The position numbers and the translations under genes were made by a program. Shown here one piece after another: positions 165-31,036 of a stretch of DNA of 32,000 bases. The first letter of the stretch is position 1; every line of letters begins with the position of its first letter. The notes under the pieces were generated by a model that had not been told where the DNA came from, searched no databases, and saw only the letters and a program-made list of their open reading frames with translations. Source of the DNA: an uncultured Opitutales bacterium. Its GTDB lineage: Bacteria > Verrucomicrobiota > Verrucomicrobiia > Opitutales > Intestinicryptomonadaceae. The DNA is taken from contig CAKTSY010000002.1 of NCBI GenBank assembly GCA_934613415.1, forward strand, positions 30,001 to 62,000. Reading direction: 5' to 3'.

Positions 165-1910
165 CTATTTTAAATTTCCAAGCTTATAGGGCGTGTATAG
201 CAAAATGCCCTCGCTTGGGGTTAGCCCCTTTATTTGCCTTAGGGCATTTGCCTTTTTTTGCTCTAGAGATTCCGGGCGCGACGCCTTTAAAAATGTGCTT
301 GTAGCTTCGCCGAAAAAGGCGTCTAAAAACTCTTCCAACGACGGTCTTTTGGGGAACACCTCTATTTGGCAGGGTTCGTCTTGCGCTTGCATTACAAGTT
401 CCATCGTATCCGAAAGCGTCATATTGTAGGCGTCTATCAATTTTAAATCCTTTGCCTTTTGCGCTGTCCAAACTTCGCCGGTTGCCAAGTTTTTGGCTGT
501 AGCTTTGTCTATTTTGCGCGAATCGGCAACAAGGTTAATAAACTTGTCGTACACAAAATCAATTCTGCTTTGTATTATGGCATTTTCCTCGGGCGTGCTT
601 TGCCTAAAGGGGCTTAGCATATCGGCAAATTTGCCGCTTTTTGCCGTGTCGAAATTCACTCCGTAGCTGTCGGCCAATTTTTCTACGCCGAAGTTTATTG
701 AAAATACGCCTATAGAGCCTATAAGGCTTTGCTCTTGCGCAAAAATTTTGTGCGCTGCCGACGCAATCCAATACGCCCCGCTTGCGCACATAGACGAAAC
801 CGAAACAAACACGGGCTTTTTTTGCGCCAGATTTTGCAAAGACCTGCGTATTTGCTCGCTTGCCTGCGCCGATCCGCCGCCGCTGTTTATGCGCACTACC
901 ACACTAGAAATTGTGTCGTCGTCGGCAATTTCGTCGAAAATAGCCGAATAAAATTTTGCCGAAATTACACTTTCTTCGCCGAAAATATCGGAGGGGTCGC
1001 TCTCCATAACAATGTTGCCAGACATATAAACAAGAGCCGTTTTGTTGAGCGAAAACGCGCTTATATCATCGTTGGTTTTTGCATATTTTTCTATGGGAAC
1101 TTCGTCTATTGTATCGTCTTTAAAAAGCGTTTTTTTGATTTTTGCTTTGTCGGCAATTTTGTCTACAAGGCGAATTTCCATAGCCTCTTTTGCGCCGAAA
1201 ACGGGGGTGCTTTGCGTGGCGTTTTCAAGCTTTTGCGCGTCTATTTTCCTTGCGGCGCAAACGGCATTTAGCACGTTTTGCCAAAGGCTTTTGGCTATGT
1301 TTGTAAGCTGTGCTTTAGCTTCGGGCGAAAAGCCGCTTTTTGTAAACATATCGCCAAAATCCTTATATTTGCCGCACTTTACAACGTTTGCCGAAATGCC
1401 GTATTTTTTGAATGCATTTCCGAAAAACACGCCTTCGAACGCCAGCCCCGAAAGGTCTATCTCGCCCATTTCGTCCATAAAAATTTCGTCGGCCGCGCTA
1501 AAAACATAGTATGCTTTTTTGTCGGCGTAGTCGGCCACAGCATATACTTTTTTGCCGCATTCCCTAAAGCTTAAAAGGGCGTTCCTTATTTCGCACGCCT
1601 GCGCAAGCGACATTTGCGTGGTGCTGTCGCAGTAAATCAAAATTGCCGAAACCGAGTTGTCGCAGGCTGCCTTTGCAATGGCGTTGGCAATTTCCCTTTC
1701 GTTTAGCTTGCCGTATTTGTTTTCGCCGCCGAACACCGAGTTTGCCGAAAACGGAAGGTCTTGCACGGGCATTGCAATGTTTAGCGAAACAATGTTTTCG
1801 CCTTTGGTGTCTTGTAGATATTTTGCCGCCCATACGCCCAGCGTTAAAAACGCAAAAAACGCCAAGGTTAAAACTAGGCACGAAGTGCACCCGAATTTTA
1901 TAAATTTCAT
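165..1910 (-). CDS. sppA: Signal peptide peptidase SppA, 67K type (tandem S49 domains)
   Basis: 581 aa with an N-terminal TM anchor (CLVLTLAFFAFLTLGVWAA). There are two S49-like halves, with SGGGSAQASEQI and CASGAYWIASAA motifs in the second half. Confidence 0.85.
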   Translation of the reverse strand: MKFIKFGCTSCLVLTLAFFAFLTLGVWAAKYLQDTKGENIVSLNIAMPVQDLPFSANSVFGGENKYGKLNEREIANAIAKAACDNSVSAILIYCDSTTQMSLAQACEIRNALLSFRECGKKVYAVADYADKKAYYVFSAADEIFMDEMGEIDLSGLAFEGVFFGNAFKKYGISANVVKCGKYKDFGDMFTKSGFSPEAKAQLTNIAKSLWQNVLNAVCAARKIDAQKLENATQSTPVFGAKEAMEIRLVDKIADKAKIKKTLFKDDTIDEVPIEKYAKTNDDISAFSLNKTALVYMSGNIVMESDPSDIFGEESVISAKFYSAIFDEIADDDTISSVVVRINSGGGSAQASEQIRRSLQNLAQKKPVFVSVSSMCASGAYWIASAAHKIFAQEQSLIGSIGVFSINFGVEKLADSYGVNFDTAKSGKFADMLSPFRQSTPEENAIIQSRIDFVYDKFINLVADSRKIDKATAKNLATGEVWTAQKAKDLKLIDAYNMTLSDTMELVMQAQDEPCQIEVFPKRPSLEEFLDAFFGEATSTFLKASRPESLEQKKANALRQIKGLTPSEGILLYTPYKLGNLK

Positions 1911-1923
1911 TTTGTGGATTTAA

Positions 1924-4900: not shown

Positions 4901-5736
4901 CGAGTTTTAATGTAAAACTCGTTGTTAGGATAGCGCATGCGGTTTTCGTCGGCAAGCAGCGCTCCCGTATTTATGCAAAGCATGGCGTCGTGCGCTTCGG
5001 CGTCTTTTTTGTAGACATAGTGGCTGTCGTTTGTGGCAACCAGCTTTAAGTCGAACTCTTTTGCCAGCTTTATAAGCCCAGGGATTACCTTTTTGTCGGC
5101 GGGTAAAAAGTGGTTTTGAATTTCTATGTAGTAGTTTTCCCTGCCGAAAATATCCACAAACTTGGCGGTTGCGCGCCTTGCGTTTTCGTAGTCTGAATAA
5201 AGCAGGTATTGCGAGGCAACCCCGTTTATGCAGCCGCTAAGGGCTATAAGCCCCTTCGAATATTTTGCCAGCGTTTCGTAGTCTATGCGGGGTTTGCGGT
5301 AAAAGCCGCGCTCGTAAGATTCGCTTGTAAGCTTTGCCAAATTCAAAAAGCCCTCGTAGTTTTTTGCCAAAAGGGTTTTGTGGTGTATCAAAAAGCGCGG
5401 AAAGTCGGATGGGCGCAATGCCGAAACATCGCCCTCAATGGCGTCGATGTCGTCGGACTTTTCTTCGGTGGGCATTGTGGCCCTTAAGGCGCGAACGTCG
5501 TCGCCCATATTGTGGTCGTTAATAAAATAGGCCTCCATGCCTATTATGGGCTTAACCCCCGCCTTTTGCGCCGCCTGATAAAAATCTATGGCTCCGCACA
5601 TATTGCCGTGGTCGGTCATTGCAACCGCGGGCATGCCAAGCTCTTTTACCCTGCCAAGCAGCACGGGCAAACGGGCACAACCGTCCAGCACCGAGTAGTC
5701 GGTGTGGACATGCAAATGTACAAACGAGTCGGCCAT
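1924..5736 (-). CDS. dnaE: DNA polymerase III alpha subunit
   Basis: 1270 aa. It has an N-terminal PHP domain (FVHLHVHTDYSVLDG, MTDHGNM), a polymerase core (GPGRGSGAGC, DFDVDF, FNKSHSAAYA) and an OB-fold tail. Confidence 0.95.
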   Translation of the reverse strand: MADSFVHLHVHTDYSVLDGCARLPVLLGRVKELGMPAVAMTDHGNMCGAIDFYQAAQKAGVKPIIGMEAYFINDHNMGDDVRALRATMPTEEKSDDIDAIEGDVSALRPSDFPRFLIHHKTLLAKNYEGFLNLAKLTSESYERGFYRKPRIDYETLAKYSKGLIALSGCINGVASQYLLYSDYENARRATAKFVDIFGRENYYIEIQNHFLPADKKVIPGLIKLAKEFDLKLVATNDSHYVYKKDAEAHDAMLCINTGALLADENRMRYPNNEFYIKTREEMAELFPDNLDAIDNTLEVAEKVDIKIPMGKNHYPKYEKPAEIVYDKDEENFNRILDLYVAKKNEVLRQNKKPDDFSLSPERRKELMKNGLLLFDLAKKGMVKRYNVDYNHPEKYIPKEGESPDRAKMLCDKLDYELSIIVGAGFVDYFLIVYDFINWARTQGIPVGPGRGSGAGCMIAYLIKITDIEPIRFHLLFERMLSLERVSPPDFDVDFCERRRPLVIDYVRRKYGTDHVANIATYGKLGAKAVVRDLARVNGIPYDRANALAKLVPDELKMTLKKALEMSAELRAEVETKPDVKKVFEQGEVLEGMIRQLGKHACGIIIGDQRLDNIVPMMTQEGALTTQFAKTPDEELGLLKADFLGLKTLTVISDAQDNVRLARKNPDFDIEEVALEDPATFKLLNSGTTVGVFQLESEGMRNLCRRIGLSVFEEIIALIALYRPGPMQFIDQFIEAKHDPSKLQVPHPLLKDLVQETYGVLVYQEQVMMAARIIAGYTLGEADILRRAMGKKKPEVMAQQKSIFVAKAKEFNNIEPAEAERIFGVLEKFAQYGFNKSHSAAYAMLSYRTAYLKANYPAEFMAAMLSSEMGNHDKVEKFIDACEDINIHVLGPDVNESRQSFFPIIDKNWDPLAEHPFEKSAGSIRYALSAVKGIGDGPANAIVSERDKNGNFKDMADFMKRVGLSGINKRVLQNLILSGAFDSFKIDRGILNASLDAIVASAAEREKDRATGQTSLFDLMDMGSENAELADVIDMTKPPMPLSEKLSHEKELLGFYISGHPMNEFAPFDALLKIMPDLDKVRRIKKAPFRVCGVISGVKRRFTKKDKKPWASFLLSTRDGESYSFNMFPTAYESYKDVLGENVCLCISGDIRYDNGEIRYNVESATNMAETVATQATDATWVIDAYSDAENFVRRLSHCIHDGEQDRSIMHHVLIRVNETDYMDVDLDFKSAFNKEKFADLKRESAFLRLEAKIKPFEPKVRKFEFRRKTN

Positions 5737-5742
5737 AAAGGC

Positions 5743-6798
5743 TTAGGCCTGCGCCGATTGGTCTTCGGCCAAAGTCATACCGCCTACAACCTGAACCTTT
5801 TCGAGAATCTGGTTTTTAATGCTTTCGGCAACTTCCGGATTTTGCGCCAAATACGCCTTTGCGGCTTCTCTGCCCTGGCCTATTAGCTCGCCGTTAAGGG
5901 AAATCCAAGCTCCCTTCTTTTCCAGAATCTTGTGCTCAATGCCAAGGTCTATAAGGCTGCCCGTCTGCGAAATGCCTTCGTTGTACATAATGTCGAATTC
6001 GCATTCGGTAAAGGGGGCTGCAACTTTGTTTTTAACAACTTTTACCTTTGTTCTGTTGCCTATAACCTTGCCCGAGGGGTCTTTAATTTGGCCTATTCTG
6101 CGAATATCCATTCTTACCGAGGCAAAGAATTTTAATGCGCGGCCGCCGGGGGTTGTTTCGGGGCTGCCGAACATTACGCCGATTTTTTCCCTTATCTGGT
6201 TTGTGAAAATGCAAACGCACTTTGTTTTGCTGATGGCGGCAGTAAGCCTGCGCATTGCCTGGCTCATCATTCTTGCCTGAAGGCCTACTGTGCTGTCTCC
6301 AAACTGGCCGTCTAGCTCCTGTTTAGAAACTAGGGCTGCAACCGAGTCGATTACAATAACGTCTATCTCGCCCGAGCGAATTAGCGTTTCTGCAATGTTA
6401 AGGGCGTCTTCGCCGCATTCGGGCTGCGAAACCATAAGGTTATTTAAGTCTACGCCAACAACCTTTGCATAGCGCGGGTCTAGCGCGTGTTCTACGTCTA
6501 TAAACACGGCATTGCCGCCCATTTTTTGCGCTTGGGCAATAACCGAAAGACACAGCGTTGTTTTACCCGAAGATTCCGGGCCGTAAATTTCGCAAATTCT
6601 GCCGCGCGGAAGGCCCCTTACGCCCAATGCCAAGTCTATTGCAATAGAGCCCGTGCTGATTGTTTCAACCTGCATTTTTACAGCATCGCCTAGCCTTATA
6701 AGCGAGCCTTCGCCAAATTGTTTGTTTACCGCGCTAAGGGCCATATCCAAAGCCCTGTTGGGGGTTGCAGTCTGTACAGAATCGTTCTTCTTAGCCAT
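5743..6798 (-). CDS. recA: Recombinase RecA
   Basis: 351 aa with Walker A ([13 protein letters not shown]), [10 protein letters not shown], and L1/L2 loop regions ([37 protein letters not shown]). Confidence 0.97.
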
Positions 6799-6895
6799 AA
6801 TTTTTACCGTAATATATTGTTCTTATTTCTTATAAAATTTATATGCGTCTTTTATAATTTCGGCGCAAAAAATTGTCGATAAAAATTTGCTAAAT

Positions 6896-7984
6896 TTATT
6901 CGGCGCAAAAGGCATCAAGCTCGCACTCTACAAGTAAGTTGCTGCGGCATACGGTGCTATATGCTACGCACAGGGGTATTTTGCCTTCTTTGCTTAAATA
7001 TTTTTCAAAAGTAGCGCAATATTCGGGCTTTGCGCAATAGGCAACGGCGTTTATGCAGTCTTTAAAGGACATATTCTGCTTTTTTAAAATTTCCAAAATT
7101 ACATCTCTAGTAAGGCGCGACTGCTTTTGAACATCGCCTATATATGCGGATTGCCCGTCGGCAAAAATCGACGCTGTTCCCGAAACAAAAATTCGCCTGC
7201 CCGTATTTGTGCAAACCATTACAGCCCTTGAAAAAGACGAGCCGTAGTCTTTTGCCGAATTTTGCAGGGGTGACGGAATTTCGCGCACGCTCCAGCTTAT
7301 ATTCTTTTTTGAGCCTTTTAGGGCAATTAGCCCGCTTTCTATTAAAGAGTTGTTTGTGTTTGCAGCCCCAATTCCCGTGCTGGCGGGCAAAAGCCCCTTA
7401 AAGATATTGTGGGTGTTAAAAAATTCGGTTCTAGCCGCGTTAAAATCGCCGTACCAATCCAAAATATTTTGGTTGTAAAACCAGGTGCGTATAACGTCGT
7501 TAAAACAAAATCCGTTTTCGGTTAGGATATTGTTTAAACAGTTTAAATTGTATGTTGCGCGCTCTTTGGCGGTGCAATTAGGCAAATCGCCGTTTACGCC
7601 GAATGTGCGCAGGCACTCGAATTCTTCGTTGCCGTATACTACGCTGTTGCCGTTTGCGCTTTGCCTGAACGATATTTTTTCGGCCTTGCCCAAAACGATG
7701 TGTATAGACGCCAAAAGGGGCTTTGCATTTTCGCTTAAGGGCAGAATGTAGTTTACTGGGAAAGAGTGCCCTGCCTTTTTCTTAAACTCAAGTAGGGGTT
7801 TTTTAAGAAATTCGCCCCCGAAAAGTTCGGCAAACAAAACCGTGGCATTTTCCTTTTTGGCGGTGTACAGCGCAAAGTCGAAAACGGCGTTTGCCTCAGA
7901 TGCGGTTTGCACCCTTTCGCTTATGGATATTTCGTAAACGTCTTTGTAGAACTGCAAAGTTTTTGTTGCGAAAATTTCCGCCAT
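6896..7984 (-). CDS. RidA/YjgF-fold protein, probably an FkbO/Hyg5/XanB2-type chorismatase
   Basis: 362 aa. The C-terminal third fits the RidA pattern (FVSGTASI...GDVQKQSRLTRDVILEIL...LLVECELDAF). The middle region (VIRTWFYNQNI..WYGDFNAARTEFF...LPASTGIG) recalls chorismatase family motifs. This rests on recall only. Confidence 0.5.
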   Translation of the reverse strand: MAEIFATKTLQFYKDVYEISISERVQTASEANAVFDFALYTAKKENATVLFAELFGGEFLKKPLLEFKKKAGHSFPVNYILPLSENAKPLLASIHIVLGKAEKISFRQSANGNSVVYGNEEFECLRTFGVNGDLPNCTAKERATYNLNCLNNILTENGFCFNDVIRTWFYNQNILDWYGDFNAARTEFFNTHNIFKGLLPASTGIGAANTNNSLIESGLIALKGSKKNISWSVREIPSPLQNSAKDYGSSFSRAVMVCTNTGRRIFVSGTASIFADGQSAYIGDVQKQSRLTRDVILEILKKQNMSFKDCINAVAYCAKPEYCATFEKYLSKEGKIPLCVAYSTVCRSNLLVECELDAFCAE

Positions 7985-10720: not shown

Positions 10721-12049
10721 TTAGTGTGGGAACAACAGCATTTCGTTTATTCTCGACAACGTCGAAAAATGCAATGTTGCAAAGGGTTTGTCGTTTATGA
10801 ATATCTCCCTTTTTTCGGGAAATTTCAAGCCGTCCGAAAAGATTTTTTTGTTCGAGAATAAAATTTTAAACGACATTTGCTCGGCTTCGTAACAAATGCT
10901 TTTTATGTCGCCGCTTTGCTTGTCGAAAAAGTATTCGTAGGTTCTTGAGGGCGTTGTAACTTTAAGCGAGCAAAGCGATTTGTCGGGCGAGTCTTTGCCG
11001 CGAACAATCTCTATTCTGCGCGAGTCGCTCGAAAGCCCGCCAAAGGGGAACGCCTTTGCAAGCAAAACTTCGTCGAACAAAAACAGCGATTTTAAGGCTT
11101 CGTTTTCGGCAAATTCCAACGCCTGACTTGGACCCGAAACGGTTGCCGTTAGCAGCTTTCTGCCCAAAGTGTATTCGGGTATAAAATACGCCGCCGAAAC
11201 GCCGTTTGTGTCGGTCGTTTTTAGATAGGTATTGCCGTTTCGGTTTTTTATTACCCTTAAAGCGTAGTTTTTGCCCTGAATTGTTGCAGTGCCTCGCATA
11301 AGCTCGTCTCTCGAGCGCGAAATGGTTTCGAACAGGCCCGTAGCTTTGTAGAACTTTTTTATTATGTTGTTTGCTTCGCTGTTTGGCAGCTTCCAAAACT
11401 TTTTTTCGTCTTTTTCTTCGGGCGAAATGCCGTCGCCGTCTTCTGCCATAGCCATTCTGTCGGAATACGAATTGGCTTTGGAGCTTGTTAAAACCCAGGT
11501 AACCAAAACGCCCAAGCCCGACAACAACGCGCCCGTCAAAATTATTATCGACACCGTTTTTATGAACGAAACTTTGCGCTCTTTTTCGAGGGCAATAGCC
11601 TCCATTTGTTCGGCGTTTTTTTGAATTTCGCTTTGGCGGCGTTTAAGTTCGGCGTCGTCTACAAGGTCTTTGCCTTTTTTTTCGAAAGGTTCGTCTTCTA
11701 CATATTCAAAATCGGGTTCGGCTTCGAAATTGGAATCTTCAAAATAAGCCGAATGCATATCGACAGACGAATTTTCGCCGTTTTCGCTTGAAGATGGATT
11801 TTCTTCAACCTCTTCGTAGCCTGCGTCTTTAAAGGCAGCAAGGTGTTCTTTGTCGATTTCTATTTCTTCAAAAACTTCCTCTTCTTCGAATTCGGGCGGA
11901 GGAGGAAAGCCGCCCCTAAACGGCGGAGGCGGCGGTATAAAATAGGGCGGTAGGGGAGGGGGAAAGGGAGGAGGCGTAAAAGGTGCGCCGCTTTCGGGCA
12001 TCTTTCGCTTCCTTAGCCTTGGGTTTACCTCGTTGCCGCCCTTTTGCAT
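10721..12049 (-). CDS. Single-pass membrane protein with an N-terminal polyproline/acidic region and a C-terminal extracytoplasmic domain, function unknown
   Basis: 442 aa. Residues 23-52 read PFTPPPFPPPLPPYFIPPPPPFRGGFPPPP, followed by a long E/D-rich stretch. The TM helix is at about 162-187 (FIKTVSIIILTGALLSGLGVLVTWVL), preceded by KERK. The true start could be Met17. Confidence 0.6.
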   Translation of the reverse strand: MQKGGNEVNPRLRKRKMPESGAPFTPPPFPPPLPPYFIPPPPPFRGGFPPPPEFEEEEVFEEIEIDKEHLAAFKDAGYEEVEENPSSSENGENSSVDMHSAYFEDSNFEAEPDFEYVEDEPFEKKGKDLVDDAELKRRQSEIQKNAEQMEAIALEKERKVSFIKTVSIIILTGALLSGLGVLVTWVLTSSKANSYSDRMAMAEDGDGISPEEKDEKKFWKLPNSEANNIIKKFYKATGLFETISRSRDELMRGTATIQGKNYALRVIKNRNGNTYLKTTDTNGVSAAYFIPEYTLGRKLLTATVSGPSQALEFAENEALKSLFLFDEVLLAKAFPFGGLSSDSRRIEIVRGKDSPDKSLCSLKVTTPSRTYEYFFDKQSGDIKSICYEAEQMSFKILFSNKKIFSDGLKFPEKREIFINDKPFATLHFSTLSRINEMLLFPH

Positions 12050-16783: not shown

Positions 16784-16999
16784 ATGAGCGAGCAACTGAA
16801 AGATTTTGTAAAATCCCGACGCAAGGAATTGAAAATGACGCAACAGTCTCTTGCCGACAAGAGCGGCGTTGGCATTCATTTTGTTCGCGATATAGAGCAG
16901 GGCAAGCAAGACCTTCGCATAAAAAAAGTAAATCAAGTTTTGTTTATGTTCGGCGCAAAGCTAGCCCCCGTTGCACTCGATAAGGAGGATAGGCAATGA
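16784..16999 (+). CDS. hipB: XRE-family HTH protein, HipB-like component of a tripartite HipBST module
   Basis: 71 aa with an HTH_3 pattern (RRKELKMTQQSLADKSGVGIHFVRDIEQGKQDLRIKKVNQVL). Its stop overlaps the next start as ATGA. Confidence 0.75.
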   Translation: MSEQLKDFVKSRRKELKMTQQSLADKSGVGIHFVRDIEQGKQDLRIKKVNQVLFMFGAKLAPVALDKEDRQ

Positions 17000-17322
17000 G
17001 AAGCGCAAAGATTTTTTTTAAAGACGTGTTTGCAGGAACATTGCGCGAAACGGAGGCGGGCTACGAATTTGTCTACGACGAAAACTACCTTCGCGCAGAA
17101 TCCGCCCAACCTGTAAGCCTTACTTTGCCGCTTCGAATTGCTCCGTATACGCAAAAAACGCTCTTTTCGTTTTTTGACGGACTTATTCCGGAAGGCTGGT
17201 TGCTTGATTTTGCCGCGCAAACTTGGAAACTTGACCCCCGCGACAGAATGGGGCTTTTGCTTGCATGTTGCAAAGATTGCATAGGCGCAGTTAGTGTTGT
17301 AGGAGCCGAGCACGACAAATGA
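16996..17322 (+). CDS. hipS: HipS-like protein (stand-alone HipA N-terminal domain), putative antitoxin
   Basis: 108 aa with HipA N-terminal/Couple_hipA motifs (FFDGLIPEGWLL, DRMGLLLACCKDCIGAVSV). There is a strong SD, AAGGAGG (16982-16988), and ATGA overlaps on both sides. Confidence 0.8.
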   Translation: MRSAKIFFKDVFAGTLRETEAGYEFVYDENYLRAESAQPVSLTLPLRIAPYTQKTLFSFFDGLIPEGWLLDFAAQTWKLDPRDRMGLLLACCKDCIGAVSVVGAEHDK

Positions 17323-18263
17323 AAAGATGCTTGTATTGCTATAAGCCGCTAAACGACGGGGAAATTGATTTTCACGCGTCTTGCGCAAAAAAATTTTTTG
17401 GAACTTCTGTTGTTCCAAAACTGCCTTACACGCAAGCCGACTTAAAGGAGCTTGCCAAACAGGTTGTGCGCTCGCATACGACAATAGCGGGCGTTCAGCC
17501 GAAGCTTTCTATGTATCTCGACAAAGCTGTTCGAGCCAATCCGAAACTTACAATTGTAGGCGTGTTCGGTAACTTTATTTTAAAGCCGCAAGCCGCGAGG
17601 TTTCGCAATCTTCCCGAAAATGAAGATTTAAGTATGCATTTGGCGGAAATTGCAGGGGTTTCAACCGTGCCGCATTCTCTAATGCGCTTCGCCGACGGCG
17701 AACTTTGCTATGTTACAAAGAGAATAGACCGCGGCGCAAAAGGCGAAAAATCTCCGATGGAAGATATGGCGCAACTGACTTTGCGCTTGAGCGAAGACAA
17801 ATACAAATCGTCCTACGAGCGAATTGCAAAAACTATCCGTGAATATTCCGACAATGTCGGTTTCGACCTTTCAAATCTTGCCGAGCAGGTTTTGTTTTCG
17901 TGGATAATCGGTAATTCGGATATGCACTTGAAGAATTTTTCGCTTATAAAAAATGCAGATAAATGGCAGCTTTCGCCAGCCTACGATATGCTAAATGTAA
18001 AACTGGCACTGCCGGACGACACGGAAGAATTGGCATTAACCCTTAACGGCAAGGGTGGAGCCATGTATAAGTTCACAAGAAATGACTTTGTAAAATCATT
18101 CAAAACATTCGGCTTGCCGAATTCGGCCATAGACAACCTGTTTGCCAGAATGATTAAAGCCAAATCAAAGCTTTGCGATTTTGTATCGGCAAGTTTTTTG
18201 CCAACAAAAATGCAAGATGCTTTTTGCGAACTTATAAAGGAAAGAATAGCGCGATTGTGTTAA
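17319..18263 (+). CDS. hipT: HipT-like Ser/Thr kinase toxin (HipA C-terminal kinase core)
   Basis: 314 aa. It carries a Gly-rich loop (TTIAGVQPKLS), a catalytic loop (IGNSDMHLKNFSL), a Mg-binding PAYDMLN motif and an N-terminal CxxC...HxxC. Confidence 0.85.
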   Translation: MKRCLYCYKPLNDGEIDFHASCAKKFFGTSVVPKLPYTQADLKELAKQVVRSHTTIAGVQPKLSMYLDKAVRANPKLTIVGVFGNFILKPQAARFRNLPENEDLSMHLAEIAGVSTVPHSLMRFADGELCYVTKRIDRGAKGEKSPMEDMAQLTLRLSEDKYKSSYERIAKTIREYSDNVGFDLSNLAEQVLFSWIIGNSDMHLKNFSLIKNADKWQLSPAYDMLNVKLALPDDTEELALTLNGKGGAMYKFTRNDFVKSFKTFGLPNSAIDNLFARMIKAKSKLCDFVSASFLPTKMQDAFCELIKERIARLC

Positions 18264-23347: not shown

Positions 23348-23854
23348 TTATCCGAATTGCACGCCAAGCCAAAAGCCCGCTCCAATAGAAACGACTACCG
23401 CAAACCTAAATATTGCCGAAAGCCCGGTTCCCAAAAAAGCTCCAATGCCAGCCTTTGCGGCTTCGCCAAAGGGGCGTCCGCCCAAAAGCTCGAAAAGCAG
23501 CGCAAATATAAGCGGGGCTAAAAATATCCATAAAATCATAGGCGGGATAAATATGCCAACTATTGCGCCTATTATCGCGCCCAAAGCTCCCTTCCAAGTT
23601 GCCCCCATTTTTTTAGAACCAAAATATGTAAAGGCATAGTCTGCAATTTGCGAAACCAAGGCCGCTACTCCCGAAAACCATATAAGCGACCAGCCTTCTA
23701 GCGATTGGGGGAATATCAGCTTATATACAAGCACGCCGGCAAACGCCAGCATCGGCCCCGGCAAAAGTGGCAAAAACGAGCCGATGGCCGCTATTACAAA
23801 AACCGCACTTAAAAGCAGGGCACTAGCCTGTTGTGTATATAAAGAATAATCCAT
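23348..23854 (-). CDS. DUF456-family integral membrane protein
   Basis: 168 aa with four predicted TM segments and an N-terminal FLPLLPGPMLAFAGVLVY pattern typical of DUF456. Confidence 0.65.
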   Translation of the reverse strand: MDYSLYTQQASALLLSAVFVIAAIGSFLPLLPGPMLAFAGVLVYKLIFPQSLEGWSLIWFSGVAALVSQIADYAFTYFGSKKMGATWKGALGAIIGAIVGIFIPPMILWIFLAPLIFALLFELLGGRPFGEAAKAGIGAFLGTGLSAIFRFAVVVSIGAGFWLGVQFG

Positions 23855-23943: not shown

Positions 23944-24471
23944 ATGGAAAGCTCATTCAACGACCAAAAACTACTTGAAATGCTTCAGGGCGAAAAATTT
24001 CTTGCATTTTTCGACTTTGCAATGAACGACGATTCTTTCGGCGGCGAAAAAGACGGCATTTGCAAGGTTGCGCGTCCAAGCACCAGCACGCTCGAGTATT
24101 TGTCGTTGACATTCATTTTCGATACGCTCGACGACGTAAGGCGCAATATGGCAAAAAGAACGGTCTCGAAACTTACAAGCGAGGCGTTTGCGGCAACAAT
24201 TCCGCAAATCTACGCCATAACAAGCGTGCCCGGCAGCATGAAGCAAAGCGACCACTATATTCACCATATAGACCTTATGTTTAAGGGAGCCTTGCCCGAC
24301 GATATGCAAGAGCTTATAAAAAAGGTGGTTTATGTAATCCGCCACACGGCGGGGCTTGAAACCGAAGTTCCTCAATGGTGGGACGAAAACGAAGCTCCCG
24401 CGCCTTCCGAAGCCGAAAAGGCAAGCTGGAAAGACAGAATCAAGGCCTTTTTGGGTCTTGGTAAAAAATAG
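23944..24471 (+). CDS. Hypothetical protein, first gene of the PP2C/kinase/opp string
   Basis: 175 aa from the ATG at 23944 (MESSFNDQ...). The track ORF starts at a TTG at 23893. I recognise no motif. The C-terminus, SWKDRIKAFLGLGKK, looks amphipathic. Confidence 0.6.
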   Translation: MESSFNDQKLLEMLQGEKFLAFFDFAMNDDSFGGEKDGICKVARPSTSTLEYLSLTFIFDTLDDVRRNMAKRTVSKLTSEAFAATIPQIYAITSVPGSMKQSDHYIHHIDLMFKGALPDDMQELIKKVVYVIRHTAGLETEVPQWWDENEAPAPSEAEKASWKDRIKAFLGLGKK

Positions 24472-24484
24472 GGGCATTTTTTAG

Positions 24485-25657
24485 ATGCAGATTTTTGACG
24501 AAGCTAAAAACGGTTTCGGCTCGAAAATTTCGGTTTTGATGGTAGACGACCAGGCCATTTTCGGCGAGGTTCTTAAGCGAATGATTGCCGAAACGGGCTA
24601 TTTGTTTACCTTTTGCCAGAACCCGTTAGAGGCTGTTGCCGTTGCCGAAAAAGTAAAACCCACCGTAATTTTGCAGGATTTGTCTATGCCCGAAATGGAC
24701 GGGTTAGACTTGGTAAAGGAGTTCAGAAAAAACCCGACTACCGCCGAAGTTCCAATGATTGTATTGTCGGCAACCGACAACGCCGAGATTAAATACAAGG
24801 CGTTTGCAAACGGCGCGAACGACTATATGGTGAAATTGCCCGACAAGCTTGAAATGCTTGCCAGAATAGAATACCACTCGAAAGCCTACATAAATTATTG
24901 CGAAAAAAACAGGGCAATGCAGCTTTTGCAGGAAAGCCAAAACGCGCTAAAAAAAGAGCTGTATCAGGCTCAAAGCTATGTGGAAAGCCTTTTGCCCGAA
25001 AAGTGTTCGTACAACTCGCTTTCGTGCGATTGGGAGTTTCAAAGTTCCACAATGCTTGGGGGCGACTGTTTCGGCTACGGCTTTATAGACGCCGAAAATT
25101 ACGCGGTATATTTGCTGGACGTATGCGGCCACGGCGTGGGGGCGGCATTGCTTTCGGTTTCGGCAATAAACGTTTTGCGTTCGCGAACCCTTGCCGGCGT
25201 AGATTTTAAAGAGCCCGCCGAGGTCTTAAACGCAATGGGAAAAGCCTTTGATATGGAAAAGCAAAACGGAATGTTTTTTACCTTGTGGTACGGCGTATAC
25301 AACACAAAAACGCGCATTTTAAAATATTCCAGCGGCGGGCACCCTCCCGCAATTTTAAAGGACAAAAACGGTCTGCATTTTTTGGGAACAAAGGGGCTTG
25401 TTGTAGGCTCGAATATGGGCATAGACTATGTTCAAGAGCAAACCACTATTTTGCCCGAAAGCGACTTGTTTGTGTTTTCCGACGGCGTGTACGAAGTGGA
25501 AAAGCAAGCCGACAAGTCTATGATGACAATAGAAGACTTTGCCGAAATAATAAAACAAACATCGTCTTTAAAGGAAATAAAAAAGGCGGTGCAAGCCGTT
25601 CAGGGGCGCGACAATTTCGACGACGATTTCAGCCTATTTAAAGTGTCTATAAAATGA
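24485..25657 (+). CDS. Response regulator receiver fused to a PP2C/SpoIIE-type phosphatase (RsbU-like)
   Basis: 390 aa. The REC domain shows VLMVDDQ, LQDLSMPEMDG and GANDYMVKLPD. The SpoIIE domain shows GGDCFGYGF..VYLLDVCGHGVGAALLS and FSDGVYE. Confidence 0.9.
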   Translation: MQIFDEAKNGFGSKISVLMVDDQAIFGEVLKRMIAETGYLFTFCQNPLEAVAVAEKVKPTVILQDLSMPEMDGLDLVKEFRKNPTTAEVPMIVLSATDNAEIKYKAFANGANDYMVKLPDKLEMLARIEYHSKAYINYCEKNRAMQLLQESQNALKKELYQAQSYVESLLPEKCSYNSLSCDWEFQSSTMLGGDCFGYGFIDAENYAVYLLDVCGHGVGAALLSVSAINVLRSRTLAGVDFKEPAEVLNAMGKAFDMEKQNGMFFTLWYGVYNTKTRILKYSSGGHPPAILKDKNGLHFLGTKGLVVGSNMGIDYVQEQTTILPESDLFVFSDGVYEVEKQADKSMMTIEDFAEIIKQTSSLKEIKKAVQAVQGRDNFDDDFSLFKVSIK

Positions 25658-26061
25658 CGAAAAAAACATACACAAGCTCGCTGGAAAACGTAGAGCGTCT
25701 TTCGCAAGACGTAGAGGAATTTTTTGCGCAAAAGGGTGTAGACAATGCCGCAATATTCGCCATAAACCTTTGTTTAGACGAGCTTTTTACAAATTCTGTA
25801 ACCTACGGCTACAAGGGCAAAGCCGACGGCAAAATAGAGGTAGAGCTTTCCCTAAACGGAAATACCGCCGAAGTTCTTTTGCGCGACTTTGCTCCCGAAT
25901 TCGACCCTACAAAATCGGGCAAAGAGGCCGATTTAACTTCGGGTATAGACGAGCGAAAAATAGGCGGGTTAGGCATATATTTTTGCAAAAAGAATATGGA
26001 CGAATTTTCGTATGCCAGAAAGGGCTGTGCCAACGAAATTACATTGAAAAAACGCATATAA
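25654..26061 (+). CDS. RsbW/SpoIIAB-like anti-sigma regulatory Ser/Thr kinase (HATPase_c_2)
   Basis: 135 aa with an N-box (LCLDELFTNSVTYGY) and a G-box (IGGLGIYFCKKNMDEF). It has an ATGA overlap with the upstream phosphatase gene. Confidence 0.8.
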   Translation: MTKKTYTSSLENVERLSQDVEEFFAQKGVDNAAIFAINLCLDELFTNSVTYGYKGKADGKIEVELSLNGNTAEVLLRDFAPEFDPTKSGKEADLTSGIDERKIGGLGIYFCKKNMDEFSYARKGCANEITLKKRI

Positions 26062-26062
26062 A

Positions 26063-26890
26063 ATGAGTTTACTTTCGGTAAGGGATTTAAAAATTACGTT
26101 CAATTCCGGTTCGCGCAAAACGCAGGCGGTAAAGGGCGTTTCGTTCGACATAAACGACGGCGATTCGGTTGCCATTGTAGGCGAAAGCGGCTCGGGCAAA
26201 ACCATTACTTCGCTTTCGTTTACAAGGCTTCTGCCAAAGCCGCCCGCCTGCGAAATTTCGGGCGAAATTCTGCTAAACGGGCGCGACATACTTAAAATGT
26301 CGCCAAGCGAGCTTCGCAAAATAAGGGGCGCAAAAATCGCCTATGTTTTTCAGGAGGCTTCGGCTTCGCTTAATCCGGTTTTCACAATAGGCTCGCAAAT
26401 TGCCGAAGCCGTAAAGATACATATGCCCGAAGAGAAAGACGTTAGGGGCTTTGTGGTGAAAATGCTAGAGCAAGTGGGCATAAGAGACGCAAGCTTAAGG
26501 TACGACGCATATCCGCACGAGCTTTCGGGCGGCATGCAGCAAAGGGCAATGATTGCAATGGCGCTAAGCTGCGCGCCTTCCCTTTTGGTTGCCGACGAGC
26601 CTACAACCGCGCTAGACGTAACAATTCAAAAACAGATTATAGACCTTTTAAAATCGGTGCACGAAAGCCGCAAAATGTCGCTTATTTTAATAACGCACAA
26701 TTTCGGGATAATTTCGTCTTTATGCGAAAAGGTTATGGTTATGTTCAGGGGGCAGATTGTGGAAAGCGGCTATACAAAAGACGTGCTTAAAAACCCGCAG
26801 CACCCCTACACAAAGGCGCTTATTGCGTGCGTTCCGAGGCTCGGGCACAAGCACGAAAAACTTGTAAGCATAGACTACGAAAATTTGTAA
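26063..26890 (+). CDS. oppD: Peptide/nickel (Opp/Dpp-family) ABC transporter ATP-binding protein
   Basis: 275 aa with Walker A (GESGSGKT), signature (LSGGMQQR), Walker B (LLVADEPTTALD) and a C-terminal PQHPYTKALI. It starts 1 nt after the kinase stop. Confidence 0.88.
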   Translation: MSLLSVRDLKITFNSGSRKTQAVKGVSFDINDGDSVAIVGESGSGKTITSLSFTRLLPKPPACEISGEILLNGRDILKMSPSELRKIRGAKIAYVFQEASASLNPVFTIGSQIAEAVKIHMPEEKDVRGFVVKMLEQVGIRDASLRYDAYPHELSGGMQQRAMIAMALSCAPSLLVADEPTTALDVTIQKQIIDLLKSVHESRKMSLILITHNFGIISSLCEKVMVMFRGQIVESGYTKDVLKNPQHPYTKALIACVPRLGHKHEKLVSIDYENL

Positions 26891-26891
26891 G

Positions 26892-27689
26892 ATGGATTCG
26901 CAAAACACATTGCTTGAGGTAAAAAACTTGGTTGTAAGCTTCGATACTTCTTCGGGGCTTTTCGGGCGCGGCAAGAAATCGTTCAACGCCGTCGACAACG
27001 TTTCGTTCTTTGTAAAAAAGGGCGAAACCGTAGGGCTTGTAGGCGAAAGCGGTTCGGGCAAAACTACTATAGGCCGTAGCATTGTTTCGCTTGTAAAACC
27101 CGCAAAAGGCGAAATATTTTTTGAGGGAACTCGCATAGACAACCTTTCCCGCAAAGAATTTATGCCCTTCCGCAAAAAAATACAAATGGTGTTTCAAGAC
27201 CCATTCAATTCGCTGAATCCGAAAATGAGCGTTTTCAAAATAATTTCGGAGCCGCTTGAAATCCATTTTAAGAATATGACATATGCCCAGCGAAAAGCCG
27301 AAGTTGCCTCTTTGCTTGAAACCGTTGGTCTTAAGGCCGATTTTATGGAAAGGTTTCCGCACGAGTTTAGCGGTGGGCAACGCCAGCGCATAGGCATTGC
27401 AAGGGCGTTGGCTGTAAAGCCGCAGTTTTTGGTTTGCGACGAACCCGTAAGCGCGCTAGACGTTTCCGTTCAGGCTTCGATTATAAATTTGCTTGAAGAT
27501 CTAAAGCAAAGCCTGGGGCTTTCCATGCTGTTTATTGCTCACGACTTGGCTGTTGTAGAGCACATAAGCGACAGAATTATGGTTATGACAAAGGGGCGCA
27601 TTGTAGAGCAGGGCATTGCAGAAGATGTTGTTGCCAACCCGCAGCACCCCTACACAAAAAAGCTTATAGCGGCGGTTCCCGTATTCTAA
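26892..27689 (+). CDS. oppF: Peptide/nickel (Opp/Dpp-family) ABC transporter ATP-binding protein
   Basis: 265 aa with GESGSGKTT, FSGGQRQRIGIARAL, FLVCDEPVSALD and PQHPYTKKLI. Confidence 0.88.
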   Translation: MDSQNTLLEVKNLVVSFDTSSGLFGRGKKSFNAVDNVSFFVKKGETVGLVGESGSGKTTIGRSIVSLVKPAKGEIFFEGTRIDNLSRKEFMPFRKKIQMVFQDPFNSLNPKMSVFKIISEPLEIHFKNMTYAQRKAEVASLLETVGLKADFMERFPHEFSGGQRQRIGIARALAVKPQFLVCDEPVSALDVSVQASIINLLEDLKQSLGLSMLFIAHDLAVVEHISDRIMVMTKGRIVEQGIAEDVVANPQHPYTKKLIAAVPVF

Positions 27690-29257
27690 TGAGGCGTTTT
27701 TTTGCAGTTGTTTTTGCGGCATTTTTTACATTGCTTTTTTGCGGTTGCTCGAAAAAACCTTTTTCTAGCGATGCCGAAATTTGCGCGCGGCAAAAGATTT
27801 TGCTTGTAGGCAACAGTGCAGATCCTGCCTCGTTAGACCCGAGCATTGCAACGGGGCTTAGCGAATCTAAAATAATTGCCGCTTTGTTTGAAGGCCTTGT
27901 AAGCCCCGACGAACGCACTTTGCAGATAAAGCCCGCGCAGGCCGAAAGTTGGACAATTTCGCCCGACGGGAAAACCTATGTTTTTAAGATAAGAAAAACC
28001 GCCTATTGGTCGAACGGCGACAAGGTAAAAGCCGGCGATTTTGTGTATGCTTGGCGGCGCATTTTAAACCCAAAATTAGGGGCGGAATATGCCGGAATGC
28101 TGTATGTAATTAAGAACGCAAGGGATATAAACAAGGGCAAAAAAGAGCCTTCTATGCTGGGCGCAAAAGCTTTAGACGACAGCACTTTGCTTGTAGAGCT
28201 TGAACGCCCGAGGAACGACTTTTTAAATTTCTTGTATCACACTTCGTATATGCCGTTAAACCAAAAAAATCTGGAGGCCTTTAATGCTTACGCAAGCCGA
28301 AGGTCTAAATGGACGCGCCCCGAAAATATGGTTGTAAACGGGGCGTTTAAACTTGCCCGCTACGAGATAAATTCGCAAGTGCAGGCCGAAAAAAACCCGA
28401 CTTATTGGGACGCAAAAAATATAAATATAAACGGCATACGCTTTTTGCCAATAACCAATATGAACACCGAAGACAGGGCGTTTTTTGCGGGGCAGCTGCA
28501 CCTAACCGACAGCGTTTCGGCAATAAGGCTTGAAAAGGAAAACAAAAAAGCTTCGGACTATATGCAAAAGGGCGACTGGTATGCAACATACTATTATGTG
28601 TTTAACACAAAAAGGCCGCCCTTTGACAACCCTCTTGTGCGCAGGGCGTTTAGCTTGGCCGTAAACCGAACCCCCATAATAGATTCGTGCATGAAAGGCG
28701 GTCAAAGCCCCGCATATTCTCTTGTGCCCGATTTAAACGTAAACGACAAAGCCCGCGCCGAAAACATAGAATTGGCAAAAGAGCTTTTGGCAAAGGCGGG
28801 CTACCCCAACGGAAAGGGATTCCCGAAAATCAGGCTTGTATACAACACTTCGCAACAGCATAAGCCCATTGCCGAATCTTTGCAGGAGTGTCTGCGCAAA
28901 AATTTGGGAGTTTTCGTAGAGCTATACAACCTTTCGTGGCCGGCGTATCTCGACGCACGCAGCAAGGGCGATTTTGATATGACAAGGGCAAGCTGGACAG
29001 CAGACTATCTTTCGCCCGAAAGTTTTTTGTCGAACTTTTTAAGCGACAGCCCCCTTAACAATTCGGGGTGGAAAAATTCGGAATTCGATAGGGCGGTTTT
29101 TGAGCAACGCTACAAAGACGCGCAAAAAATTATGGACGACAACGCCGTTGTTTTGCCGCTTTTCTACTACAAAAGAATATTTTTAAAAAGCCCCCTTTTA
29201 AAGGGTTGGAGCACAAATAAACTGGACTACCACAACTATAAATCGGCGCACTTTTAA
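27689..29257 (+). CDS. oppA: Family-5 peptide-binding lipoprotein of an ABC transporter
   Basis: 522 aa with a signal and lipobox-like LFCGC. It shows the SBP_bac_5 pattern (DPSIATGLSESKIIAALFEGL, WSNGDKVKAGDFVYAWRR). Its ATG overlaps the oppF stop by 1 nt. Confidence 0.88.
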   Translation: MRRFFAVVFAAFFTLLFCGCSKKPFSSDAEICARQKILLVGNSADPASLDPSIATGLSESKIIAALFEGLVSPDERTLQIKPAQAESWTISPDGKTYVFKIRKTAYWSNGDKVKAGDFVYAWRRILNPKLGAEYAGMLYVIKNARDINKGKKEPSMLGAKALDDSTLLVELERPRNDFLNFLYHTSYMPLNQKNLEAFNAYASRRSKWTRPENMVVNGAFKLARYEINSQVQAEKNPTYWDAKNININGIRFLPITNMNTEDRAFFAGQLHLTDSVSAIRLEKENKKASDYMQKGDWYATYYYVFNTKRPPFDNPLVRRAFSLAVNRTPIIDSCMKGGQSPAYSLVPDLNVNDKARAENIELAKELLAKAGYPNGKGFPKIRLVYNTSQQHKPIAESLQECLRKNLGVFVELYNLSWPAYLDARSKGDFDMTRASWTADYLSPESFLSNFLSDSPLNNSGWKNSEFDRAVFEQRYKDAQKIMDDNAVVLPLFYYKRIFLKSPLLKGWSTNKLDYHNYKSAHF

Positions 29258-30190
29258 ATGTTAAAATTTTTGCTAAAGAGAATTTTTGGGGCTATTCCCG
29301 TTTTGTTTATAATAGCAACCATTACCTTTTTTATGGTAAGGCTTGTTCCGGGCGGGCCCTTCGACAGGGAAAGACCTTTAAGCCAAGACGCCCTAAATGC
29401 CCTAAATGCCTACTATGGGTTCGACAAGCCTGTGTATGTGCAATATTTCCAATTCCTTAAAAATTTGGCGCACGGCGAGTTGGGGCCTTCGTATAAATAC
29501 GAGGGTTGGAGCGTAAACGAGCTTATTGCCGAAAAAGCTCCGGTAAGTTTGCAACTTGGTTTATATGCGCTGCTTATAGCTTTGGTTTTTGGCGTTGCAA
29601 TAGGCGTGGTGTGCGCCGCATTTAAAAATACAAAAACCGACAAATTTTTGTCGGCTATAAGTTTGTTGGGCATTTGTTTGCCGTCTTTTGTGGTTGCCCC
29701 TGTTTTGATTTTAATGTTTGCGCTAAAAATAAGGATATTCCCCGCAATAGGCTTTAGCGGGTTTTCGGGGGCAGTTTTGCCGTCGGTATCGCTTGCCTTG
29801 TTCTATTGCGCATGGATTGCCCGCCTTTGCCGCAGCCAGTGCGCCGAAATTACCGAAAAAGCCTACATAAAAACCGCCCGCGCAAAAGGGGTTGGGCCTT
29901 TTAGAATATATTTTGTGCATGTGCTTAAAAACGCGGCAATTCCGCTGGCATCGTATATAGGGCCTGCCGCCGCCGGGCTGCTTACGGGCTCGTTTGTTAT
30001 AGAAAGCATATTCCAGATTTCGGGGCTGGGAAGGTTTTTTATTTCCAGCGCGCTAGACAGCGACTATACAATGATTATGGGCTGTGTTTTGGTTTACGCG
30101 TTTTTTATTGTGGTTTTCAATATGCTCTCCGACATTTTGCTGGCGGTGCTTAATCCTAAAATAGCGTCTAACTTGGGGCTTAGAAGATGA
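29258..30190 (+). CDS. oppB: Peptide ABC transporter permease
   Basis: 310 aa, multi-TM, BPD_transp_1 type with an EAA-like loop (YIKTARAKGVGPFRIYFVHVLKNA). It starts immediately after the oppA stop. Confidence 0.88.
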   Translation: MLKFLLKRIFGAIPVLFIIATITFFMVRLVPGGPFDRERPLSQDALNALNAYYGFDKPVYVQYFQFLKNLAHGELGPSYKYEGWSVNELIAEKAPVSLQLGLYALLIALVFGVAIGVVCAAFKNTKTDKFLSAISLLGICLPSFVVAPVLILMFALKIRIFPAIGFSGFSGAVLPSVSLALFYCAWIARLCRSQCAEITEKAYIKTARAKGVGPFRIYFVHVLKNAAIPLASYIGPAAAGLLTGSFVIESIFQISGLGRFFISSALDSDYTMIMGCVLVYAFFIVVFNMLSDILLAVLNPKIASNLGLRR

Positions 30191-30969
30191 GAAAACTTTG
30201 CTTTGCATTTTTAATTGTATGCTTTGTCTTGTGCATGGGCGCCGACTTTTTTGCCCCCTATAGCTACGCCGAACAAAATTTGCAGCTTGGGGCCAGCTCG
30301 CCTACATTAAAGCACATATTCGGCACCGACAATCTCGGGCGCGACTTGTTTTCGAGAATGCTTTACGGCGGGCGCGTTTCGTTTGCTATAGGCATTTTTG
30401 CCACTTTGTTTGCGTCTGTTGTTGGGGTAAGCTACGGCGTTGTAAGCGCGTATTTCGGCAAAAAGTGCGACTATATTATGATGCGCATTGTAGATATTGC
30501 ATATTCTTTGCCCTTTGCAGTTATTGTTATTTTGCTTACGCTGGCTTTTGGCAGAAGCGTTTGGCTTTTGTTTGTAGCCCTTGGCATTGCCGAATGGATG
30601 ACTATGGCAAGAATTGTAAGAGGGCAGGTTTTAGAGCTTAAAAGCAGGCAGTTTGTAGAAGCTTCGGCGGTTTTGGGGCAAAGCACTTTTAAGGTAATAG
30701 TAAAACACATTTTGCCCAACGCCCTGCCCGCCGTTTTGGTGTGCGCTACGCTTACCGTGCCGAGCGTGATGTTGTTGGAGTCTTTTTTAAGCTTTTTGGG
30801 GTTGGGCGTGCAGGCTCCGCTGCCGTCGTGGGGCACTTTGCTTAGCGAGGGGGCAGACTTGATGGAAACGGCTCCCCACCTTTTGATTTTTCCGAGCATA
30901 GCGTTTTCGCTTACGCTGTTTTCGATAAACAGGCTCGGCGAATATTTAAAGGAAAAGCTTGCCCGCTAG
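30187..30969 (+). CDS. oppC: Peptide ABC transporter permease
   Basis: 260 aa with FGTDNLGRDLFSRMLYGGR and FVEASAVLGQSTFKVIVKHILPN. It has an ATGA overlap with oppB. Confidence 0.88.
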   Translation: MRKLCFAFLIVCFVLCMGADFFAPYSYAEQNLQLGASSPTLKHIFGTDNLGRDLFSRMLYGGRVSFAIGIFATLFASVVGVSYGVVSAYFGKKCDYIMMRIVDIAYSLPFAVIVILLTLAFGRSVWLLFVALGIAEWMTMARIVRGQVLELKSRQFVEASAVLGQSTFKVIVKHILPNALPAVLVCATLTVPSVMLLESFLSFLGLGVQAPLPSWGTLLSEGADLMETAPHLLIFPSIAFSLTLFSINRLGEYLKEKLAR

Positions 30970-31036
30970 GCAAATTTTCTTGATATGCGGTTTTTTTCTT
31001 TTTATAAACGTTAACTTAATTGCAAAACTTTGATAT

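Follow-up and report, generated by a model that had tools for sequence, protein, structure and literature searches.

Bacterial partner-switching modules, whose core is a PP2C-type phosphatase and an RsbW-like serine kinase, control sigma factors, cyclic di-GMP enzymes, secretion and the biofilm matrix. The locus discussed here lies in a 32,000-nucleotide (nt) stretch of DNA from an uncultured Opitutales bacterium (GenBank assembly GCA_934613415.1, contig CAKTSY010000002.1, positions 30,001 to 62,000 of the forward strand; hereafter the window). In it, a response regulator with a receiver and a phosphatase domain (REC-PP2C) and an RsbW-like kinase stand at the head of the genes for a peptide ATP-binding cassette (ABC) importer of the Opp/Dpp type. 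The best reading of this arrangement is that the core of a partner switch became detached from a chemosensory (che) operon and was joined to a peptide importer in one Opitutales clade.

The nearest characterised relatives in regulatory logic are CrsR/CrsA, HsbR/HsbA and SypE/SypA, all of which have a STAS protein encoded alongside and none of which has a transporter. CrsR and CrsA are encoded in the che1 chemosensory cluster of Shewanella oneidensis, where CrsR is a REC-PP2C-kinase protein and the STAS protein CrsA follows (PMC9855816). HsbR of Pseudomonas aeruginosa also carries the three domains on one polypeptide and is followed by its STAS partner HsbA (PMC6482189); its phosphorylated receiver activates the PP2C domain (PMC6482189; PMC5812489). 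Compared by domain layout, the window shares with both systems a set of REC, PP2C and RsbW-like kinase domains placed under receiver phosphorylation, but its phosphatase and kinase are separate genes with a 4-nt overlap, and an ABC importer takes the place of STAS. Instead of the single polypeptide with adjacent STAS gene that is typical of HsbR, CrsR and SypE, two open reading frames (ORFs) are present and oppD comes next. SypE of Vibrio fischeri is a kinase-REC-PP2C regulator located inside the syp polysaccharide locus that it controls (PMC3610818, PMC10120452). SypE/SypA is thus an earlier case of a partner switch encoded among the genes of the pathway that it regulates. It differs in that SypE is a single protein with an N-terminal kinase, the STAS protein SypA is encoded in the locus and the target is a biofilm polysaccharide rather than a transporter.

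Other described systems share fewer features with the locus. The RsbU/RsbV/RsbW and SpoIIE/SpoIIAA/SpoIIAB switches of Bacillus likewise combine a HATPase_c_2 kinase with a SpoIIE/PPM phosphatase; unlike them, the window locus contains neither a STAS nor a sigma factor gene, and where their phosphatases depend on RsbT or a membrane domain, its own would be driven by a receiver. SiaABCD of P. aeruginosa also pairs a PP2C phosphatase with an RsbW-like kinase, and its substrate lies outside classical sigma control (PMC9239204), but SiaA, a membrane PP2C, lacks a receiver, and SiaC and the cyclase SiaD are encoded alongside. No such combination of DUF1987 (SiaC) protein and GGDEF effector accompanies the pair in the window, and Pfam finds no GGDEF domain anywhere in it. 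In the Pseudomonas Wsp system, the genes follow the order methyl-accepting chemotaxis protein (MCP)-CheW-CheR-CheW-hybrid CheA-CheB-response regulator (PMC5812489). The window regulator resembles Wsp (WspA-F, WspR) in its receiver and stalk, which match WspR, and in belonging to a REC-PP2C family that usually stands last in an operon of Wsp order; however, its output domain is PP2C and not a GGDEF cyclase, no che or wsp genes are adjacent and it heads an opp operon. An earlier reading of this DNA, made from the sequence alone (the sequence-only reading), knew of no characterised phospho-switch within an opp operon, and literature searches aimed at such an arrangement found no description of one either.

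A seven-gene cassette conserved in Opitutales

The ORF list and the sequence agree on eight co-oriented plus-strand genes with the closely spaced junctions first reported by the sequence-only reading (Table 1), and Pfam bears out the gene order and domains that it gave, including the lack of a family for the first protein, which is 175 amino acids (aa) long. Judged by what recurs elsewhere, the functional unit is nevertheless one of seven genes and not eight. The genes for REC-PP2C, kinase, oppD, oppF, oppA, oppB and oppC occur in identical order in 12 distinct Opitutales lineages, represented by the window, by L005, L007, L010, L011, L012, L013, L014 and L016, and by the metagenomic loci L092, L093, L095 and L096. 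Lineages were told apart by OppD identity; L011 and L093, which are 95% identical, were counted once. Metagenome-assembled genomes with the cassette include GCA_044433115.1, GCA_944389215.1, SUVO01, CAAEZV01, CALXLX01 and CALXSL01. Pairwise OppD identity among the cassettes is 62-85%, and the genomes that carry them range from 36 to 58% in GC content. Identity to the window is 64-73% for OppD, 54-63% for REC-PP2C and 35-52% for the kinase. In the nine genomes measured, the junction between kinase and oppD spans -13 to +1 nt, an ATGA overlap being the commonest form. Further, a neighbour-joining tree of 85 REC-PP2C sequences groups its nine cassette proteins in one clade. The sequence-only reading had asked whether the phosphatase and kinase stand beside opp genes in other genomes or in this one alone; the adjacency is real and recurs in all 12 lineages. 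On the evidence of gene order and tree, the arrangement is conserved clade-wide and is of single origin, not a product of chance.

The cassette comes in two sub-forms. In the window subclade it abuts the gene of the 175-aa protein, while the other subclade has an upstream region of its own. There, a promoter-like element consisting of an A/T tract, TTGC[GA]T, a spacing of about 17 nt and a -10-like hexamer lies 30-45 nt before the REC-PP2C start (Table 1). The position of this shared element directly upstream of REC-PP2C fits an operon that would start at that gene. At the other end, the gene of an HI0933-like flavin adenine dinucleotide (FAD) protein starts at or overlaps the oppC stop in L010 (14643-15878) and also in L011, L012, L013, L014 and L016. 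It makes an eight-gene string in this second subclade and is absent from the window subclade.

Within the string of the window, a consensus scan for internal promoters gave 14 matches, against 10.6 ± 3.8 in shuffled sequences, and one for internal terminators gave 20, against 14.7 ± 4.2; neither count exceeds expectation. At shuffle level such scans are uninformative: they offer no sign of an internal break in the sequence, and a single transcript is not thereby proven. Upstream, the unit is bounded by the divergent gene of a DUF456 membrane protein. At the downstream end, positions 30959-30973 form a weak hairpin with a trailing T-run that shares bases with the oppC stop codon, and a DUF5696 gene begins 67 nt past oppC.

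The variable neighbours of the cassette, appended to the 175-aa gene in one subclade and followed by the flavoprotein gene in the other, bear on the possibility that the pair and the importer are merely co-expressed. The signalling genes would then ride on the uptake operon, or lend it a promoter, without either acting on the other, and would serve an unlinked STAS protein and sigma factor with unrelated targets. That most REC-PP2C relatives work with unlinked partners would also suit this explanation. The tight junctions and the identical order of REC-PP2C, kinase and oppD speak against it, since both are maintained over 12 lineages with both flanks reshuffled, among proteins diverged to about 55% identity and genomes 22 GC points apart. 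Conservation of this kind usually reflects a functional link, and co-expression without mutual action is held to be improbable.

Origin of the phosphatase in a Wsp-like pathway

In the REC-PP2C protein, Pfam recognizes Response_reg at residues 17-128 (4e-20) and SpoIIE at residues 203-389 (3.5e-35). An alignment of 20 sequences shows as invariant the receiver residues D21, D22, D65, S95 and K117 as well as D194, D212-x-x-G-H-G, D333 and D380/D381 of the PP2C domain. The protein thus has the intact metal-binding aspartates of a PPM/PP2C phosphatase of the SpoIIE type, together with a receiver that retains its phospho-acceptor site. The best PDB match of the receiver and stalk is WspR (3BRE; residues 14-157, E 8e-43), followed by RssB of P. 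aeruginosa (3EQ2), which places the receiver with those of Wsp-like output regulators.

More than 6,900 relatives of the REC-PP2C protein are present in the database, and the family extends over Planctomycetota, Verrucomicrobiota, Chlamydiota, Proteobacteria, Acidobacteriota and other groups. An alignment of these relatives was used to scan species-representative genomes, and the best 80 loci were labelled by gene context. Among these, CheB/CheA genes lie directly upstream on the same strand in 42 and che genes elsewhere in the locus in 12, so that 54 of the 80 are in or beside a che operon; four are cassettes, and 22 are without che genes, several of the latter on incomplete contigs. The usual operon reads MCP-CheW-CheR-CheW-hybrid CheA-CheB-REC-PP2C, as in L009, with REC-PP2C last. 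An adjacent kinase is present in 12 of the 80 loci and a STAS gene somewhere in the locus in nine.

Intermediate arrangements are found close to the cassettes. In the tree, the cassette clade has as its sister L015, an Opitutales locus with the layout CheA...CheB-REC-PP2C-kinase; L099 has the same layout, and its kinase is among the closest relatives outside the cassettes. The complete form, che...REC-PP2C-kinase-STAS, occurs in L017 and L038. Because of these che-linked relatives, with the sister L015, L099 and the full forms in L017 and L038, the phospho-switch pair of the window is placed by its sequence relationships as the output end of a Wsp-like pathway, in which PP2C stands in place of the GGDEF domain of WspR. 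The window regulator itself does not sit at the end of a che operon, as no che gene was found in the window or its extended flanks; its origin in such an operon rests on the tree and not on gene context in the window. That the module descends from the output genes of a chemosensory operon of Wsp type, as the comparison of sequences indicates, had escaped the sequence-only reading. A literature search aimed at Wsp-like systems with a PP2C output found no description of one.

A side observation concerns L038, where a 772-aa protein (4920-7238, minus strand) adjoins the che...REC-PP2C-kinase-STAS genes. Its N-terminus matches the STAS hidden Markov model (HMM) described below with an E-value of 4e-6, and by eye the remainder resembles an AMP-binding enzyme of the acetyl-CoA synthetase kind; the protein would then be a fusion of STAS and Acs.

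The kinase and the missing STAS gene

The kinase matches HATPase_c_2 in Pfam (2.5e-24). Its best PDB match is RsbW (6M36), RsbW and SpoIIAB being its best solved relatives, and both also match it in NCBIfam, below the cut-offs. The N-box residues E43 and N47 and the G2 box GGLG (104-107) are invariant, and the G1 box reads D78-F-A and not D-x-G. These features mark it as a putative GHKL serine kinase of the RsbW/SpoIIAB type, the kind used in partner switches. In a first comparison, the nine cassette kinases had D-x-A or D-x-S in the G1 box and 12 comparison kinases had D-x-G. A degenerate ATP site specific to the cassettes was rejected as an explanation, as D-x-A is also found in the STAS-linked loci L098, L134, L144 and L170 and in the che-linked L099.

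A protein-database search with the kinase returned 14 matches only, because this protein diverges quickly, and its relatives were taken from a scan of metagenome DNA. A STAS gene is present in the locus of 65 of the 75 nearest kinases from outside the cassettes, within 300 nt in 51 and elsewhere in the locus in 14; the 10 without STAS are mostly on short contigs. By comparison, no STAS gene accompanies the phosphatase and kinase within 8-10 kb of the cassette in any of the 12 lineages (Fisher p = 3.6e-9).

The sequence-only reading had found neither a STAS nor a sigma factor gene in the window. Pfam, applied to all other sizeable ORFs, agrees, and an HMM for STAS, built from seven seeds and run on the six-frame translation of the window with a cut-off of E <= 1, gave no matches. 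Human gut metagenomes contain further contigs of this species, which occurs in Hadza gut samples, and with them the view widens by 10 kb on the left of the window and about 3 kb on its right; no STAS, sigma factor or che gene occurs in these additional 13 kb or so, or about 45 kb in total around the cassette. Neither Pfam nor the purpose-built six-frame HMM nor the extended contigs thus revealed a concealed STAS gene in the window or beside it.

The two enzymes give this absence different weight. Beside the phosphatase, a missing STAS gene would say little, since adjacency of STAS or kinase is exceptional in the REC-PP2C family; beside the kinase, oppD occupies the slot that STAS holds in its relatives. 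On the loci compared, the absence of STAS is specific to the locus, and the term 'STAS-less' holds for the locus only. Both enzymes keep their functional motifs, so that a phospho-substrate must exist, and an unlinked STAS protein is quite possible as most REC-PP2C relatives have no adjacent STAS or kinase gene. In the sister locus L015 an adjacent STAS gene is already absent and no opp genes are present; therefore, the loss of adjacency came before the link to opp. What the window encodes is, on its domain content, a partner-switch core and not a complete system: phosphatase and kinase are there, an encoded STAS protein is not.

The position of oppD raises the alternative that the RsbW-like kinase binds or phosphorylates OppD or OppF, that REC-PP2C reverses this when its receiver is phosphorylated and that OppD has replaced the STAS protein. 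The lack of STAS in all 12 lineages would agree with such direct control, as would the kinase-oppD junction, overlapping or abutting in nine genomes at the very place where a STAS gene follows within 300 nt in most relatives, and the continued selection on both enzymes seen in their intact motifs. Partners and substrates other than STAS are known: RsbW-type proteins bind sigma factors, and SiaB acts as kinase on SiaC, which is not a STAS protein. An ABC ATPase is bound by MlaB, itself a STAS protein. To our knowledge, however, all characterised kinases of the RsbW-like family use STAS or STAS-like substrates. OppD and OppF are canonical and carry no extra domain, and the order of events read from L015 also argues against a replacement of STAS by OppD. 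Moreover, no gene fusion of kinase and OppD turned up, nor any other direct sign that the two touch; a 380-aa ORF in L013 that looked like such a fusion is an artefact of the spurious long ORFs in that 58% GC contig, where the two are separate genes with a -4 junction. Direct control of the ATPases is considered unlikely.

A different non-STAS gene fills the slot after the kinase in L057, an Opitutales locus in which REC-PP2C and kinase are followed by a 567-aa protein (1631-3334, plus strand) without a Pfam match, its gene overlapping the stop of the kinase.

The upstream 175-aa protein

The first gene of the string was also weighed as a partner of the switch. The sequence-only reading had suggested that the 175-aa protein might serve in this way, a role like that of SiaC as a non-STAS phospho-acceptor. 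It is co-oriented with the cassette at a distance of 13 nt in the window and 0-2 nt in L005 and L007, and it has no known domain, without a match in Pfam (DUF1987 included) or NCBIfam. Gene context does not bear out the suggestion. The 175-aa gene precedes the cassette in the window and, apart from it, in no more than its two closest relatives, L005/L006 and L007/L008; at least six lineages out of 12 (L010-L014 and L016) lack the gene in that position, and the upstream sequence searched in L092, L095 and L096 holds no match to it. Elsewhere, the cassette is preceded by other genes, such as a ParA/Mrp-like gene in L010 and a GH2 gene in L011. Conversely, the 175-aa gene occurs without the cassette in L001 (Ruficoccus amylovorans), L002/L003 and L004, where it is followed by argS, or by mgtE on the opposite strand, and no phosphatase, kinase or opp genes lie beside it. 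What does accompany it across Opitutales is the DUF456 gene, placed head-to-head with it in every locus that shows the upstream side (the window and L001-L007).

Forty homologues of the protein were found, and those few with an organism name belong to Opitutales; the motif T-E-x-P-Q-W-W is invariant in the family. An AlphaFold2 model of good confidence (predicted local distance difference test 86, predicted template modelling score 0.84) gave a best template modelling score of 0.35 against the PDB, so that neither a STAS fold nor another solved fold of a known switch protein was detected in the predicted structure. On gene context and predicted fold, the 175-aa protein was rejected as the switch partner, a role that now appears very improbable. 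It is a neighbour and not a member of the cassette, and in the window lineage it is probably co-transcribed with it.

The peptide importer

The importer is complete in Pfam terms, with two ATPases, a family-5 binding protein and two BPD_transp_1 permeases, and thus has all five components of the Opp/Dpp/Nik (PepT-family) systems. It differs from them in its gene order, which is DFABC and not ABCDF, in its short ATPases, in reaching no equivalog cut-off and in having signalling genes at its head. OppA (SBP_bac_5, 3e-89) begins with MRRFFAVVFAAFFTLLFCGCS, which resembles a signal or lipoprotein sequence; its best NCBIfam match is OppA of the E. coli type (339 bits, cut-off 947), and NikA scores 108 bits. 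OppD matches DppD, OppD and GsiA, all below the cut-offs, and OppF, OppB and OppC each match their namesakes best, OppF below its cut-off and the permeases below the equivalog cut-offs. Both ATPases, OppD (275 aa) and OppF (265 aa), are short, their oligo_HPY region being truncated. By architecture the importer is of the Opp/Dpp type, and with a binding protein closest to OppA, its putative substrate is peptide.

E. coli DppA passes peptide information to the receptor Tap. By analogy, one idea is that the binding protein of the cassette might feed peptide information to a chemosensory receptor.

Proposed explanation

The reading preferred here, a partner-switch core moved from a che operon to a peptide importer, begins with an ancestral operon of the form MCP-CheW-CheR-CheW-hybrid CheA-CheB-REC-PP2C, extended in some cases by the kinase, or by kinase and STAS. 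In this clade, the phosphatase and kinase genes at its output end left their che context and came to abut the five-gene importer, stop codon against start codon. A CheA-type or hybrid histidine kinase encoded elsewhere would phosphorylate Asp65 of the receiver, and the phosphorylated receiver would switch on the PP2C domain. Kinase and PP2C would then decide between them whether a small switch protein encoded outside the operon, most likely an unlinked STAS-domain protein, is phosphorylated. The output of this switch would be coupled to peptide uptake, through joint expression of the two functions or through control of the importer after translation. No role would fall to the 175-aa protein. 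An unlinked substrate is the parsimonious choice because most kinases and STAS proteins of the family are unlinked and the sister L015 has no adjacent STAS gene. That the switch protein is an unlinked STAS protein, and that the output of the module is also tied to peptide uptake, is a combined proposal to which about even credence is given. More generally, the arrangement suggests that peptide uptake is tied to a signalling pathway, and gene linkage points to possible control of the transporter by the pair.

Several observations weigh against this explanation. Within the cassette, sequence conservation is lowest for the kinase. Near the cassettes, che genes are missing, the sole exception being a hybrid CheA of low similarity in L007. 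Further, the absent STAS gene could reflect true loss rather than relocation, because a STAS gene is retained at 65 of the 75 loci of the nearest kinases and at none of those of the 12 cassette lineages.

Features of the window and its flanks

The coordinates of the cassette and of other features are collected in Table 1. The window also encodes an S49 peptidase, DnaE, RecA, a RidA-like protein, a tetratricopeptide-repeat (TPR) protein, a DegT aminotransferase, an oxaloacetate-decarboxylase-like carboxylase, a rhamnosidase, a GFO oxidoreductase, HemC, IlvC, IlvN, a Peripla_BP_2 protein and the DUF456 and DUF5696 proteins. A three-gene module of the HipBST type (16784-18263, plus strand) has a 4-nt overlap at both of its junctions. 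Between the DegT aminotransferase and carboxylase genes lies a 442-aa ORF (10721-12049, minus strand) with no Pfam match. In the contigs of the same species, the region past DUF5696 and an Rrf2 regulator stops at an ISL3-family transposase (L173, 9195-9722), which probably explains the assembly breaks about 3 kb beyond the window.

Table 1. Coordinates of the cassette genes, their upstream neighbours and other features. Positions are those of the window, except for the promoter-like elements, which are given in the loci named; negative junctions are overlaps.
Feature	Position	Strand	Remarks
DUF456 membrane protein	23348-23854	-	Pfam DUF456 (5e-26); head-to-head with the 175-aa gene; bounds the unit upstream
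175-aa protein	23944-24471	+	Gap to REC-PP2C 13 nt; ORF opens at TTG 23893, 175 aa counted from ATG
REC-PP2C response regulator phosphatase	24485-25657	+	Junction to kinase -4 nt (ATGA); Response_reg and SpoIIE
RsbW/SpoIIAB-type serine kinase, anti-sigma-like, 135 aa	25654-26061	+	Junction to oppD 1 nt; HATPase_c_2
oppD, OppD-type ABC ATPase, 275 aa	26063-26890	+	Junction to oppF 1 nt; ABC_tran and oligo_HPY
oppF, OppF-type ABC ATPase, 265 aa	26892-27689	+	Junction to oppA -1 nt; ABC_tran and oligo_HPY
oppA, family-5 solute-binding protein, 522 aa	27689-29257	+	Junction to oppB 0 nt; SBP_bac_5
oppB, OppB-type permease, 310 aa	29258-30190	+	Junction to oppC -4 nt; BPD_transp_1_N and BPD_transp_1
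oppC, OppC-type permease, 260 aa	30187-30969	+	Last cassette gene in the window lineage; BPD_transp_1
HTH_3 protein of HipBST-type toxin-antitoxin module, 71 aa	16784-16999	+	
Couple_hipA/HipS-like protein of HipBST-type module, 108 aa	16996-17322	+	
HipA_C-only kinase of HipBST-type module, 314 aa	17319-18263	+	
Promoter-like element of the second subclade	L011 ~5100; L012 ~9910; L013 ~9915; L014 ~2755; L016 ~6965		Also in L093 and L096

Significance

The hosts of the cassette are uncultured Opitutales from the gut and the environment, and its practical value lies in its being a defined set of genes, present in 12 lineages and open to heterologous expression. If the kinase does act on OppD or OppF, a chemosensory-type pathway would gate peptide import at the protein level, and this would be the first partner switch with an ABC transporter subunit as switch partner. 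A conserved module of this kind, placed in the operon of a nutrient importer without the usual substrate gene, would extend partner switching to transport. It would also link the widespread Wsp-like lineage with PP2C output, for which no described function was found, to a concrete physiological function.

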